Assembly (NCBI GenBank): GCA_009619095.1
Contig: WJOT01000078.1
Span: 6,232-70,231, forward strand
Direction: 5' to 3'
Origin: Clostridia bacterium
GTDB lineage: Bacteria > UBA6262 > WVXT01
DNA: 64,000 nt
Below are positions 3,695-64,000 of this stretch, one piece after another. How positions within the stretch are numbered: the stretch's first letter is position 1; the number at the start of each line of letters is the position of its first letter. The notes beneath the pieces are model-generated. The model made no database searches. It worked only from the letters and a program-made list of their open reading frames with translations, and was not told where the DNA came from. The position numbers and the translations under genes were made by a program.

Positions 3695-5407
3695 TTACTT
3701 TTCTTCACGCTCTTCCTTCACGATTTTTCCTTCAAACATTTTGAGCACCTTTTCTACAATTGGGTCAACTTCTTTTTTTTCCTCGGAATTGAAAACCGGC
3801 TCCTGGTTGGGAGCCACCACTTTCTCCTCTGGCTCAGACTCTCCTAAAAACTCCTCAGGAGCTGACTCATCTTTCTCCACCTTCTCTTTTGTCGGCGAGG
3901 TAGCATTAATCTCGCCAGTCATACATTTTATCTTGAGCTCTTTCCCGAGAACTCCCTTTATAGCTTGTTCGACAATATTCGACTTTTTCTCTACCCTGTC
4001 CTTATGGAAACTGTAATTTTTGGGAAAAACGATGTACAGGAGTTCTCCTTCCATACGGACGGGCGAACCCTCGAGAAGGCAAGAGTGGAGAGGAATGTCC
4101 AGTTTTCTGACAGATTCGAGAACTTCTTCCCAGCGCTGTCCAATTTCCTGAATCTCCGAATTATCTCCTGCCGGGAGTTTCTTCTCCTCCCTGAGCATGA
4201 GAGGAGGTTTCTTGCCTTCCCGAACATATCTTTCCGCAGAAGGCTCCCCTTTTTTCTCTTCAAGGGTTAGCGACTTTTCCAGTCTCCTGATTCTCTCAAT
4301 AATTTCTCCAATGGGGATATATGGCTGACAGAGACGAAACATATCGACCTCTATCACCAGCCGCGGCTGTTCGCTCCACTTCATAGATTCGTAGGTCTTG
4401 CTGAGAAGGTCGATAATCCTCACCATGTTTTCTTCCGTAAACCGGCCTCCTTTTTTGAGAAGGATTTCCAGGTGCTTATGGGGAAGTTGCAAAATTTTCG
4501 TATTCTCTCCTGCCACTTTTATAAGCAGCATATTTCTGAAGTGTTGCCTCAGGTCTTTGATAAACTGGTGGAGGTTATAACCGGATTCGGTTATCTCATC
4601 TATGAGGGAGAGAATCTCCCTGCCTTTGTGCTCAGCGATGAGGTCGGAAAATTCTACCAGGCGCTCAAATGGAAGAACACCCAGAATGAAATTTGTCTCC
4701 TGTAAGTCTATCTTCTTACCGCCAGCATAAGAAATAACCTGGTCGAGCAGGCTCTGGGCATCCCTGAGACTTCCTTCTCCTCTGTAAGCAATTAGATCGA
4801 GAACCTCCTTTTCTATTTTCAGTTTTTCTTTTCCCACAATGTAATTTAGTCTGTCAAAGATTTTCTTCTGAGGAATCAGTTTAAAGGAAAACCTCTGGCA
4901 TCGGGAAAGAATGGTGGGTGGAATCCTCTCCGGCTGAGTGGTGGCCAACATAAAGATGACGTGCCGGGGAGGTTCCTCCAGAGTCTTCAGGAGAGCATTG
5001 AAAGCGTCGTGAGTAATCTGATGTGCCTCATCAATAATGTAGATTTTGTAGTGAGAGGAGACGGGAGCAAATTTTACGTTCTCCCTTAAAGCCCTTATCT
5101 CATCAATTCCCCTGTTGGATGCGCCATCGATTTCCAGAACGTCGATGGAACTGCCTCTGACAATTTCCACACAGGATGTACACTTGTTGCAGGGCTGGGG
5201 CGTGGGACCTTGTTTACAATTCAGTGCTTTAGCTAAGATGCGTGCAGTAGTCGTCTTGCCTATGCCTCTGGGTCCTGAAAAGAGGTAAGCGTGGGCAACT
5301 TTACCTGAGGTAATGGCATTCTTTAAAGTCTTAGAGACATGCTCCTGCCCTACAATCTCATCGAACGTTTGTGGTCTATATTTTAGTGCTAATACCAGGT
5401 AAGACAT
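3695..5407 (-). CDS. dnaX: DNA polymerase III subunit gamma/tau
   Basis: N-terminus LALKYRPQTFDEIVGQEHV, Walker A GPRGIGKTT and a CxxC zinc module. Confidence 0.9.
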   Translation of the reverse strand: MSYLVLALKYRPQTFDEIVGQEHVSKTLKNAITSGKVAHAYLFSGPRGIGKTTTARILAKALNCKQGPTPQPCNKCTSCVEIVRGSSIDVLEIDGASNRGIDEIRALRENVKFAPVSSHYKIYIIDEAHQITHDAFNALLKTLEEPPRHVIFMLATTQPERIPPTILSRCQRFSFKLIPQKKIFDRLNYIVGKEKLKIEKEVLDLIAYRGEGSLRDAQSLLDQVISYAGGKKIDLQETNFILGVLPFERLVEFSDLIAEHKGREILSLIDEITESGYNLHQFIKDLRQHFRNMLLIKVAGENTKILQLPHKHLEILLKKGGRFTEENMVRIIDLLSKTYESMKWSEQPRLVIEVDMFRLCQPYIPIGEIIERIRRLEKSLTLEEKKGEPSAERYVREGKKPPLMLREEKKLPAGDNSEIQEIGQRWEEVLESVRKLDIPLHSCLLEGSPVRMEGELLYIVFPKNYSFHKDRVEKKSNIVEQAIKGVLGKELKIKCMTGEINATSPTKEKVEKDESAPEEFLGESEPEEKVVAPNQEPVFNSEEKKEVDPIVEKVLKMFEGKIVKEEREEK

Positions 5408-57480: not shown

Positions 57481-58413
57481 ATGGCTAAAAGGAAAATCTT
57501 AGTTGTTGATGATGAAAAGTATGTAGTGGAACTGATCAGGGATATCCTGGAATCAGGAGGATATAAGGTTATTCCTGCTTACAACGCTAAGGAGGCACTA
57601 GAAAAAGTCTATACCGAATCTCCCGATTTGATTCTCCTGGACATTTTGATGCCCAAGGTAGACGGATATCAGGTTTGCCGGGAGATAAGAGGTGACCTCC
57701 TCCTGTCCAATATTCCCATCATTATGTTAACAGTTAAAGGAGGAGAGAGAGATGAGATTAAGGGATTGGGCATCGGTGCTGATGACTATATAATAAAGCC
57801 TTTCCGGCCGGGTGTTCTCTTAGCCAGGGTGAAGATGGTGCTCAAACGCACCCTGCGAGGCTTGGAAGCAAACCCGCTCACTCGTCTTCCTGGCAATACC
57901 GCAATCATTGAGGAGATCGAAGAGCGTATCGACGGCGACAGACTTTTCGCAGTGCTCTATTTCGACCTCGACAATTTTAAGGCTTTTAACGACAGGCATA
58001 GCTTCGAACTCGGGGATAAAATAATCCAGCAGACAGCCAGGATAATTATCGAATATATAAAAGAGATGGGCAATCCTGAAGATTTTATCGGGCATATTGG
58101 CGGAGACGACTTCATCGCCATTACTACGCCGGATAAAATCGATTTAATCTGTTCTGCGATTATTAAATCGTTTGATAAAAAGATTCTTAAATTCTATTCA
58201 TCAAAAGACCGAATCAAGGGATACATCACAGGGAAAGACAGACAGGGGAACATAAATAAATTTCCCATAATGACCATAACCATTGGTGTAGTAACCAATA
58301 CGAGAAGGAAATTTAGCCATAAAGGACAGATTGTAGCAGTAGGTGCTGAGTTAAAGAAGCATATAAAGTCTCTTGAGGGGAGCAATTACATAATAGACAG
58401 GAGAACAAAATAG
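57481..58413 (+). CDS. Response regulator REC-GGDEF (diguanylate cyclase-like) with a degenerate GGDDF motif
   Basis: REC ILVVDDEKYVVELI...DLILLDILMP followed by a GGDEF domain in which the signature reads HIGGDDFIAI. Confidence 0.75.
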   Translation: MAKRKILVVDDEKYVVELIRDILESGGYKVIPAYNAKEALEKVYTESPDLILLDILMPKVDGYQVCREIRGDLLLSNIPIIMLTVKGGERDEIKGLGIGADDYIIKPFRPGVLLARVKMVLKRTLRGLEANPLTRLPGNTAIIEEIEERIDGDRLFAVLYFDLDNFKAFNDRHSFELGDKIIQQTARIIIEYIKEMGNPEDFIGHIGGDDFIAITTPDKIDLICSAIIKSFDKKILKFYSSKDRIKGYITGKDRQGNINKFPIMTITIGVVTNTRRKFSHKGQIVAVGAELKKHIKSLEGSNYIIDRRTK

Positions 58414-58438
58414 AAATCACCATAATGAGATAGGAGGA

Positions 58439-59134
58439 GTGGTTGTGGCAAAACAGAAGATTTTAGTGGTCGATGATGAACCAGACCTTGTGGAACTGGT
58501 CAAAGATGTATTAGAGCGGAATAATTACTTTGTCATTTCGGCACGCAATGCTGATCTTGCTATCAAGAAGGTCAAAGAATCTAATCCCGACCTCATAATT
58601 TTAGATTTGAATCTCCCGGGTATCGGGGGTATAGAGGTTTGTCGTATTTTGAAGCGAGATAAAAAAACGAGTTCTATTCCCATTATCATGTTGACTGTAA
58701 AATCGACTGAGACTGACAAGATTGCTGGGTTGGAAGCAGGAGCTGACGACTATATGACCAAGCCTTTCAGTACAGCTGAACTGGTGGCCAGAACGAGGGC
58801 TGTTCTAAGAAGGATTCTCTATGCAGGCGAGCCCGGAGAGGTTCTGGTGTCTGGAGAGATTAGGCTCGATTCAACTGAACATATGGTATATGTAATGGAT
58901 AAACAAATCGACCTTACACCAAAAGAGTTTAATCTGCTTTATCTGTTAATGAAAAAAAAGGGCAAAGTGCTCAGCAGAACTTTTCTCATTGAAAATATCT
59001 GGGGATACGAATATCTCGGTGGCACAAGAACTGTGGATGTCCACGTGCGCCATTTGAGGGAGAAGCTGGGGGAAGAGGGGAAGAAGGTAGAAACTGTGGA
59101 AGGCGTGGGTTATAAGTTTGTTGAGGAAGAGTGA
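58439..59134 (+). CDS. OmpR/PhoB-family DNA-binding response regulator (alternative GTG start at 58445)
   Basis: REC plus winged-helix domain VLSRTFLIENIWGYEYLGGTRTVDVHVRHLREKL. Confidence 0.85.
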   Translation: MVVAKQKILVVDDEPDLVELVKDVLERNNYFVISARNADLAIKKVKESNPDLIILDLNLPGIGGIEVCRILKRDKKTSSIPIIMLTVKSTETDKIAGLEAGADDYMTKPFSTAELVARTRAVLRRILYAGEPGEVLVSGEIRLDSTEHMVYVMDKQIDLTPKEFNLLYLLMKKKGKVLSRTFLIENIWGYEYLGGTRTVDVHVRHLREKLGEEGKKVETVEGVGYKFVEEE

Positions 59135-59280
59135 ATATTCAATCTTGCCCTGCTCGGTTTTCCCATAAATGACCATTTCTGAAAGCCATATAAAGTTTAC
59201 AAAAATTTTACAAATTGTTAACCTAAACTTAACATTAATAGATTATACTTAATATAGGGAAAGACAGGATTTACTATTGT

Positions 59281-59700
59281 GTGGAGAAGATGACTATGAA
59301 AGCAAAGATTTTAATCGTGGACGACGATCCAGATCTTACAAATCTGGTTAAAACTATTCTGGAAGCAGAAGACTATATGGTCTATGCGGCGGAGAGCGGG
59401 GAAGAGGCATTGGGAGAAGTGCCTAAAGTGAGGCCTGACTTGATCATTCTAGACATAATACTTCCGGGTATAGACGGTTATGACACGTGCAAGATTTTAA
59501 AGACCGACGACCACACGAATTTTATTCCTATTATAATATTGAGCATTAAGTGTTCGGTTAAAGACAGGGTTGTTGGACTAAATAAGGGAGCAGACGATTA
59601 CATTACTAAGCCTTTTGACCCTGATGAGTTAACGGCAAGGGTAGAAGCAGTGTTAAGGGGCTATGGACACTCGCCCATTTCTAGAGGCAAGAGAAACTGA
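59281..59700 (+). CDS. Single-domain (CheY-like) response regulator
   Basis: ILIVDDDPDLTNLV...DLIILDIILPGIDGYDTCKIL...KGADDYITKPF. Confidence 0.8.
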   Translation: MEKMTMKAKILIVDDDPDLTNLVKTILEAEDYMVYAAESGEEALGEVPKVRPDLIILDIILPGIDGYDTCKILKTDDHTNFIPIIILSIKCSVKDRVVGLNKGADDYITKPFDPDELTARVEAVLRGYGHSPISRGKRN

Positions 59701-60051: not shown

Positions 60052-62526
<2,475 letters not shown>

Positions 62527-62678
62527 TGGAAAGAAATAGAAAAGTTCGGTTTGTGCACTAAAAATTTTGCTATTTTCTCAAGCCGAATTTTTTTAACTAA
62601 AAAGAGACAGTAAAGCAAAAAATTAAAAGCTGCTCCTCAAAATCAACTCTTCCTTAAAGAGAAATTAAAGGAAAGATA

Positions 62679-64000
62679 ATGGAATCTTCTGAAAAAATTA
62701 TACCGCGAACCATAGAAGATGAGATGAAAGACTCTTATATAGACTATGCCATGAGCGTAATTGTGGGTAGAGCTCTTCCCGATGTAAGGGATGGCTTGAA
62801 ACCGGTTCACCGGCGTATTCTCTACGCTATGCAGGAGCTCGGTTTACTTCACAATAAGCCTTATAAGAAGAGTGCCCGTATTGTGGGGGAAGTGCTGGGA
62901 AAGTACCATCCCCATGGAGATATGGCTGTATATGATGCTATGGTGAGAATGGTTCAGGATTTCTCCTTAAGGCATCCTCTCATTGATGGACAGGGCAATT
63001 TTGGCTGTTTCACCAAAGATACCAAGGTTCGACTTACTGATAGCAGATCTCTAAGTTTTGGCCAGCTTATAAAGGAAGCCAGGAAAGGAAAGAAAAATTA
63101 CACTTTTACTTTTAATCCTGTTACGCAAAAAATTGAAATTGCTGAGATTAAAGAGCCAAGATTAACCAGAAAAAAAGCAAAAATTATCAAGGTTATTTTA
63201 GATAACGGTGAGGCGATTAAATGCACCCCCGACCATCCTTTTATGTTAAGAGGCGGTACTTATAAGAAAGCCAGAGACCTAAAATCACGGGACTCTTTGA
63301 TGCCACTATATACTAAGCTTTATAATGGTAAAGATGATCCCAATCTAAAGGGATACGAAATATTTTACCAACCAATCCAAGATGAGTGGGAATTTACTCA
63401 CCATTCCTCAGATAGCTGGAATTTAAATAATGGTGAATACATTAGAAGTTCCGGCAAGATAAGGCACCACTTAGACTTTAATAAATTAAACAACAACCCG
63501 GATAATATTCGAAGAATTCAATGGAAAGATCATTGGCAGTTCCATAGAGAAATCACTTTATGGCGGCATAAAAATGACCCTGCGTACGTAAAAAAACTTG
63601 CAGAGGGAAGAAAAAAATTTTGGGCTGATCCCCGAAATCGCCAGCAGGCTTCTAAATTTCGGTCGGAATTGAATAGAAAAAGTTGGCGAGAGCCTTCTTA
63701 TCGAAAAAAGATGAGCGAAATTATCAAACGAGCCTGGCAAAATCCTGAATATCGGCAAAGAATAATTGAAGAATCAAGTAAGAATCTAAAGAATCTATGG
63801 AAAAGAAAAGACTTCCGCGAGTTATTAAGTAAGCTAAAGTCAAAGGAACTTAAAAAAAGGTGGCAAGACGAAAAGTACAAAGTCTTTATCGCAGAAATTA
63901 CTCGGAGAACATCATTAAAAATTTGGTCCAACCCCAAGCATCGTGGATATATATCAGAATTGAGTAAAGGGCTATGGCGGAACCCTGAGTACCGAAAGAA
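62679..64000 (+). CDS. gyrA: DNA gyrase subunit A, interrupted by an in-frame intein. 3'-truncated by the window edge.
   Basis: [51 protein letters not shown]...[33 protein letters not shown], then intein sequence from codon 110. Confidence 0.85.
63006..64000 (+). other. Intein (N-terminal Hint splicing region plus HNH-type homing-endonuclease region with NUMOD3-like repeats) inserted after GQGNFG of GyrA. The C-terminal end lies beyond the window.
   Basis: Block [11 protein letters not shown] and block B TPDHPF. HNH-like [29 protein letters not shown]. Six or more about 20-aa repeats W.NPEYR...SE..K. Confidence 0.7.

Follow-up and report, generated by a model that had tools for sequence, protein, structure and literature searches.

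HNH inteins of the family considered here are already known, both from GyrB and from a phage dCTP deaminase whose intein is spliced. The NrdJ-1 and Ssp GyrB inteins are used in protein engineering, and the Ssp GyrB type was reportedly identified as an HNH intein by Dalgaard and colleagues in 1997. In GyrA, the classical intein allele combines a position directly after the catalytic Tyr (AAMRY/TE; here and below a slash marks the insertion point) with a LAGLIDADG endonuclease. The survey by Novikova et al. counts 50 GyrA inteins, spread over Actinobacteria, Aquificae, Chloroflexi and Proteobacteria (PMC4760082). The HintN and HNH_3 insert in the dCTP deaminase of cyanophage vB_AphaS-CL131 self-excises in E. 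coli (PMC6293099). In Thermococcales and Halobacteriales multi-intein genes are common, and MCM inteins at neighbouring sites interfere with one another in homing (PMC10643990). Our literature search found no paper describing an intein at the GyrA site GQGNFG/S or twin GyrA inteins.

The stretch of DNA analysed here (64,000 nucleotides, the window) ends inside a gyrA gene that carries both. We assign a probability of about 0.9 to the reading that the gene holds a 526-residue class-1 HNH intein (intein 1), spliced and homing, together with a second, 443-residue LAGLIDADG intein (intein 2) at the classical site. The gene follows gyrB (60091-62526) after a spacer of 152 bp, with no promoter-like or terminator-like site found in 62400-62800; it starts with an ATG at 62679, and its translated frame (+ strand) has no stop up to the window end at 64000. 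The N-extein (codons 1-109, 62679-63005, +) matches Pfam DNA_topoisoIV (E = 1e-41) and the NCBIfam gyrA equivalog models (E = 1e-62 to 1e-64) and ends in ...LIDGQGNFG. Where GyrA usually continues as S-[IVLM]-D-G-D...A-A-M-R-Y-T-E, the window gene has Cys110 (codon 63006-63008) and an intein block A instead. Intein 1 is thus inserted between Gly109 and the Ser of S-V-D-G-D. Its site precedes the catalytic Tyr by 12 codons and the classical intein site by 36 bp, in agreement with the claim of a sequence-only reading of this DNA that the site is non-canonical. That reading also called an HNH insertion after GQGNFG unusual, which holds in that the site is not the classical one, with the corrections that it is common in uncultivated lineages and that the HNH family is already known.

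The portion of intein 1 that lies in the window (63006-64000, +; the first 331 of 526 codons) matches both TIGR01445 intein_Nterm (E = 1.5e-10, 41.9 bits against a cutoff of 24.5) and PF14890 Intein_splicing (E = 1.6e-11, 44.7 bits against 35.8), so that the profile check of the insert for a Hint domain gave two matches above curated cutoffs; with the complete intein the PF14890 match improves to E = 4.6e-24 and covers residues 34-526. Block A, with the nucleophilic Cys1 (63006-63041, +), is kept in 43 GyrA-site and 47 GyrB-site homologues. Block B (CTPDHPF, with its Thr-x-x-His motif; 63222-63242, +) includes C73, T74 and H77, all nearly invariant in an alignment of 64 sequences (A1). In the numbering of the window gene, the class-1 features are Cys110 directly after GQGNFG and T183-P-D-H186. 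An AlphaFold model of the 331 in-window residues, built with 64 homologues, has a mean pLDDT of 94.9; the insert has the Hint fold. The Hint domain of the whole intein is complete (Cys1, the Thr-x-x-His of block B, block F, the terminal His-Asn and Ser+1). Nested within this domain and interrupting it are three parts, namely an HNH nuclease resembling I-HmuI, an array of 12 repeats and a small C-terminal helical domain. Judged from its sequence, the insert is a true intein of class 1 and belongs to the HNH family; the predicted mechanism is standard for inteins and leaves the understanding of intein function unchanged. No further intein copy was found elsewhere within the 64-kb window.

The end of the gene was recovered from public assemblies. 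An exact 80-mer from the window end had no match in JGI metagenome contigs, and the nearest match in the genome-contig collection was 69% identical. A look-up with the window GyrB, read from the ATG at 60091, returned three contigs in public assemblies. One of these, L081 (ENA ERZ3612385 NODE_262), shows 0 mismatches over the last 3000 window bases, its position 5219 being window position 64000, and it is by way of this 3000-base identity that the C-terminal part of intein 1, beyond the 331 of 526 residues inside the window, is known. Two Logan assemblies agree with L081 across gyrA over 3477 and 2514 nt, with one mismatch each. The full gene (L081:3898-9249) encodes 1783 residues: the N-extein (residues 1-109); intein 1 (residues 110-635, 526 aa; L081:4225-5802, window-equivalent 63006-64583), which ends ...DVYDLTIESTHNFALASGIFVHN; a 12-residue micro-extein, SVDGDSAAAMRY, which contains the catalytic Tyr; intein 2 (residues 648-1090, 443 aa; L081:5839-7167, window-equivalent 64620-65948), which runs CVSGDSFIV...FVSNGFISHN; and a C-extein of 693 aa beginning TEVRLANIA. 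The insert thus ends ...NFALASGIFVHN, after which GyrA resumes as SVDGDSAAAMRY; the junction reads ...GIFVHN/SVDGDSAAAMRY, with Ser as the +1 residue, and the same intein 1 junctions are found in 11 related loci. With both inteins removed, the protein has 814 aa and matches full-length gyrA models. The proposal of an in-frame intein in gyrA is therefore borne out by the TIGR01445 and PF14890 matches in the window and, past position 64000, by a C-terminal splicing motif ending in HN and the resumption of GyrA, both present on L081.

The nested endonuclease region (intein residues about 116-184; 63351-63557, +) lies where split inteins break, the usual insertion place of homing endonucleases. 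Its 29-residue core motif, the HNH-like string quoted by the sequence-only reading, was located exactly at 63459-63545 (+). H132, H154, H155, P165 and N167 are invariant and H176 and H180 nearly invariant in alignment A1; in a 28-sequence subset restricted to the HNH region (A2), all seven are invariant. The region contains a beta-beta-alpha-metal motif with the conserved His-His ... Asn ... His/Asn. When a profile of the region was compared with the PDB, its HH..N stretch aligned with the catalytic stretch of I-HmuI (residues about 71-94), at a similarity that is not significant (E = 2.8); the best matches in that search, oxygenase beta subunits (E = 0.006), were judged spurious. The Pfam HNH_3 profile gives E = 0.02-0.08 for intein 1 (13-15 bits, under the gathering cutoff of 24.8) and E = 0.0014 for a GyrB relative (L019); against PHROG HNH families the window scores E = 1.2e-3 and the intein of an Omnitrophota relative (L001) E = 1.2e-5. 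The assignment to the HNH class is accepted because of motif conservation and fold, the Pfam threshold not being reached. In line with the suggestion that the endonuclease is HNH-type and not LAGLIDADG, no LAGLIDADG match was obtained for intein 1, which, in its position too, differs from the classical allele after the catalytic Tyr (AAMRY/TE). The HNH module is predicted to be a homing endonuclease, and we infer both its nuclease activity and homing. I-HmuI itself (phage SPO1, PDB 1U3E) differs in being an intron-encoded, free-standing nickase with two helices rather than a 12-unit array.

That array, a basic alpha-helical series of W-x-x-P-x-[YF]-[RK] units with a period of 17-21 aa, occupies the remainder of the window (63558-64000, +), which holds 8 of the 12 units. 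Their Trp anchors stand at intein positions 186, 206, 227, 244, 265, 286, 307 and 324, at spacings of 17-21 residues. The pattern W..[PKEDS].[YFH][RK] occurs six times, where 20,000 shuffles of these residues gave two at most, and Tandem Repeats Finder detected no matching DNA-level repeat beneath the protein repeats. Over the full intein, the 12 W-anchored units carry a net charge of +46 over 256 residues, and the AlphaFold model of the in-window part is a series of long helices from residue 173. Of the sequence-only proposal that W repeats of about 20 aa resemble NUMOD3, the repeats stand, whereas the NUMOD3 profile of Pfam (PF07460) found no match in the window (E ≤ 1) or in the L001 intein (E ≤ 5), the control protein P0096 scoring E = 7e-16; the two repeat types may be distantly related. 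P0096 (363 aa, JGI) is a free-standing protein that has a DUF559/Vsr-type nuclease domain and four true NUMOD3 units, the latter flanked by W-x-[DN]-P-[ED]-[YF]-R units. The window repeats align with its W-units, apart from its NUMOD3 units (E = 2e-10), which suggests that the W-repeat is a portable module common to different nuclease classes. Weak Pfam matches to GerD, NHase_alpha, Ufd2P_core and GemA were set aside as chance matches or matches of a helix-capping motif to the W-x-D-P-E-[FY]-[KR] repeat.

Because of its charge, its context and its I-HmuI-like layout, the W-repeat array is given a putative DNA-binding role, as the presumed DNA-binding arm of the endonuclease. Repeat copy number seems to rise with intein length from 394 to 526 aa. 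It is conceivable, though improbable, that the 17-21-residue W-x-x-P-x-Y-R helices form a modular DNA-reading array like STPR or TALE repeats, in which copy number would set target length; if so, the HNH target would span the 36 bp to the LAGLIDADG site, and each selfish element would influence the homing of the other.

The described relatives closest to intein 1 are the cyanobacterial GyrB HNH inteins (Ssp GyrB type), which have homologous Hint-N, HNH, helical-repeat and Hint-C parts in the same domain order. Alignments of 250-331 residues show them to be 33-42% identical to intein 1 (E = 1e-50 to 1e-63); their C-terminus, NFALASGVFVHN/S, is nearly identical and likewise followed by Ser at +1. 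They differ in length (434-435 aa as opposed to 526 aa), in having fewer repeats and in their site, which is GDSAGG/SAKQGRD of GyrB rather than GQGNFG/S of GyrA, and the GyrA-site and GyrB-site inteins fall into separate clades; with homology present and the site not shared, intein 1 is therefore a related but distinct allele. In a neighbor-joining tree of the first 190 residues, the 43 GyrA-site sequences form one clade, within which the window sequence groups with L001, L002 and L004. The sister clade comprises 47 GyrB-site sequences (GDSAGG/SAKQGRD) from cyanobacteria, Methanoperedens, Chloroflexota and others, and we take it to correspond to the Ssp GyrB intein, the original HNH intein. 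A comparison of the gyrA and gyrB target-site DNA for cross-homing found no meaningful similarity beyond G-rich codons. Among annotated phage cases, the dCTP deaminase of Aphanizomenon phage CL131 comes closest: its intein shares HintN and HNH_3 with intein 1, is 29% identical to the window fragment over 79% of the latter, and differs in its host protein, its phage genome, its length (351 aa) and its shorter helical region. As the splicing domain of intein 1 is close to those of NrdJ-1 and Ssp GyrB, it may be a useful scaffold.

The wider distribution of intein 1 was assessed from its homologues. A word-indexed protein search returned 96, mostly GyrA fragments, the latter from Omnitrophota, Patescibacteria, Nanoarchaeota/Woesearchaeota and mine-drainage metagenomes; the remainder are in GyrB, RtcB, dCTP deaminase and RNR. 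Some of the fragments with this intein type are labelled 'intein-containing DNA gyrase subunit A' by NCBI. Every homologue from this search is a fragment of less than 600 aa, compared with full-length genes of 1180-1780 aa in contig collections, so that either assemblies often break inside these inteins or long proteins are under-represented in the index. This intein type occupies the same GyrA site in at least 43 of the retrieved sequences, which come from Omnitrophota, Patescibacteria and archaeal MAGs. In 11 complete loci the intein sits exactly at GQGNFG/S and measures 394-526 aa. Five Omnitrophota MAG loci (L001-L003, L005 and L007) have copies of 524-526 aa; the copy of a MAG labelled Planctomycetia has 452 aa, and four loci, including two labelled Patescibacteria group or Saccharibacteria, have copies of 394 aa. 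Intein clade and gyrB-gyrA synteny suggest, tentatively, an Omnitrophota-related bacterial host, the window GyrB being only 56-64% identical to GyrB of those MAGs. Intein 1 thus adds a second, widely occupied GyrA intein site, which is without representation in the curated GyrA-with-intein model of NCBI. A HMMER scan with the HNH-plus-repeat module against 1.84 billion cluster representatives (clusters at 50% identity) matched 1347 clusters at E ≤ 1e-3, 185 of them at E ≤ 1e-10, many of the matches being internal in proteins of 700-3000 residues; with 1347 clusters matching, the rare HNH intein class is a large, mostly unannotated family.

In the proposed mechanism, the GyrA precursor would be translated whole, and intein 1 would then leave it through the usual four steps of protein splicing, so that GQGNFG-SVDGD is restored. 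For homing, the helical array would act with the C-terminal domain to position the HNH nuclease on intein-less gyrA, whose target around the insertion point would read GGCAATTTTGGC/TCGGTTGAC; the nuclease would nick or cut such alleles at the GGCAATTTTGGC/TCN site, and repair from the occupied allele would copy intein 1 in. Signs of mobility can be read from composition and occupancy. GC3 is 0.34 for intein 1, 0.33 for intein 2 and 0.44 for the exteins, with the same deficit in five relatives. In the set of retrieved GyrA sequences with both sites readable, a sample biased by the way it was collected, 30 are occupied at the first site only and four at neither; a further 16 are occupied at the second site only, among them sequences with Omnitrophota-like N-termini whose inteins there are 64-71% identical to intein 2 of the window gene. 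Two organisms, that of the window included, have both sites occupied. All four occupancy states exist among relatives, from which it follows that the two GyrA sites were invaded independently. Separately, a metagenomic GyrA fragment (P0019, GOS) shows a third GyrA site: in the same protein, a LAGLIDADG intein ending ...MIAHN/ lies 33 residues upstream of an HNH intein at GQGNWG/C.

Patchy occupancy in close relatives, and an intein GC3 still under that of the host, also weigh against a splicing-only relic, that is, an intein 1 that splices, as an essential gene demands, and is inherited only vertically, its HNH and repeat module no longer cutting. This alternative is possible, if unlikely: the sub-threshold HNH_3 score would fit it, and the clustering of the intein 1 copies of the Omnitrophota MAG loci in the neighbor-joining tree is compatible with vertical descent, yet the window copy has all invariant HNH residues and a full-length 12-unit array. 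Moreover, mini-intein derivatives exist in RtcB (P0090, P0092), which shows that the module disappears where it is dispensable.

Intein 2 matches LAGLIDADG_3 (E = 2.3e-17), and its splicing domain is homologous to that of the Mxe GyrA intein (E = 1.2e-22). The Mxe/Mle GyrA intein (PDB 1AM2) thus has a homologue in the second intein of the gene and shares host protein and active-site loop with the first. The NCBI model NF038098 (GyrA_w_intein) is colinear with residues 634-1780 of the L081 GyrA (profile positions 103-1231), and so with intein 2 and not with intein 1; its scores stay under the cutoff of 1850 bits, at 1238 for the protein of the window gene and 952 for the single-intein relative L001. 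From the Mxe homology and this colinearity, intein 2 is the classical GyrA intein at the classical site (RY/TE), with both the AAMRY/TE position and the LAGLIDADG domain that mark that allele, and the catalytic Tyr therefore lies on the 12-residue micro-extein. Both inteins must splice for the 814-residue GyrA enzyme to form.

Inteins of two nuclease classes, 12 codons apart, thus bracket the catalytic Tyr, a compact natural case for studying interference and splicing order. The nearest parallel, the Haloferax MCM-a/MCM-d pair (PMC10643990), likewise places two endonuclease-bearing inteins nearby in one essential replication gene, with single and double occupancy both present in the population; it differs from the GyrA pair, whose host is probably a bacterium, in that the GyrA inteins carry nucleases of different classes (HNH and LAGLIDADG) and lie just 12 codons apart. 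What is noteworthy here is the GyrA site, the 12-residue spacing with its micro-extein, and the large uncurated HNH-plus-W-repeat module; the arrangement is not mechanistically new. As both inteins flank the catalytic Tyr, an unspliced precursor must be inactive, which counts for a reading in which one or both inteins are domesticated and retained by the host, their conditional splicing (redox, metal, temperature or DNA damage) gating gyrase. Conditional splicing is documented for other replication-protein inteins, such as that of mycobacterial DnaB, and Cys1 is a redox-sensitive nucleophile. We nevertheless consider such a regulatory role very doubtful, because no regulation-specific feature turned up, the element is built like any standard mobile intein, and its patchy occupancy speaks against a host requirement.

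Among the retrieved GyrA sequences, the twin arrangement occurs in two organisms, that of the window and that of L084 (ENA ERZ25039472 contig_70471, L084:1783-6771; protein P0102). The second of these has an HNH intein of the shorter type, SVDGDPAAAMRY and a LAGLIDADG intein, and its gene is called as three ORFs, the result of either frameshift errors of a long-read assembly or a pseudogene. The notion that the insert is an assembly chimera or gene fusion, not truly in gyrA or breaking it, could draw on the split of this locus, on the window end falling inside the insert and on the fragmentary homologues (all under 600 aa) of the word-indexed search, but is effectively refuted by three independent assemblies (ENA and two Logan runs) with the same uninterrupted 1783-codon ORF through both inteins and by the 11 related loci with intact ORFs and the same junctions.

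The surroundings of the intein pair provide some further observations. Upstream of gyrB lie three consecutive response-regulator genes (57481-59700, +), between which no histidine kinase gene was found: a receiver-GGDEF protein (57481-58413, +), an OmpR-type regulator (58439-59134, +) and a single-domain receiver (59281-59700, +). These coordinates use the starts of the ORF list; the gene caller on L081-L083 places the second and third starts slightly later, giving 229 and 134 aa. For gyrB, the mechanical ORF begins with a TTG at 60061 and the public-assembly gene with the ATG at 60091 (811 aa). The gyrB site GDSAGG/SAKQGRD (61357-61416, +), which hosts the sister-clade intein in other organisms, is empty in the window. 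In two Omnitrophota relatives the match to gyrB is interrupted, for about 1.2 kb in L003 and about 0.5 kb in L007, which suggests that gyrB is occupied there as well as gyrA. Past the window end, an archease gene (L081:9246-9671) overlaps the gyrA stop by 4 nt. It is followed by rtcB (L081:9738-11141), which is cut by the contig end and is itself interrupted by an intein (...GGIGYDLN/CLSGDSLILHN...; PF01139 E = 2.5e-19, PF14890 E = 1.3e-7) with a LAGLIDADG-like GYVFGDGSI motif. Together with the gyrA pair, this makes three inteins within about 8 kb.
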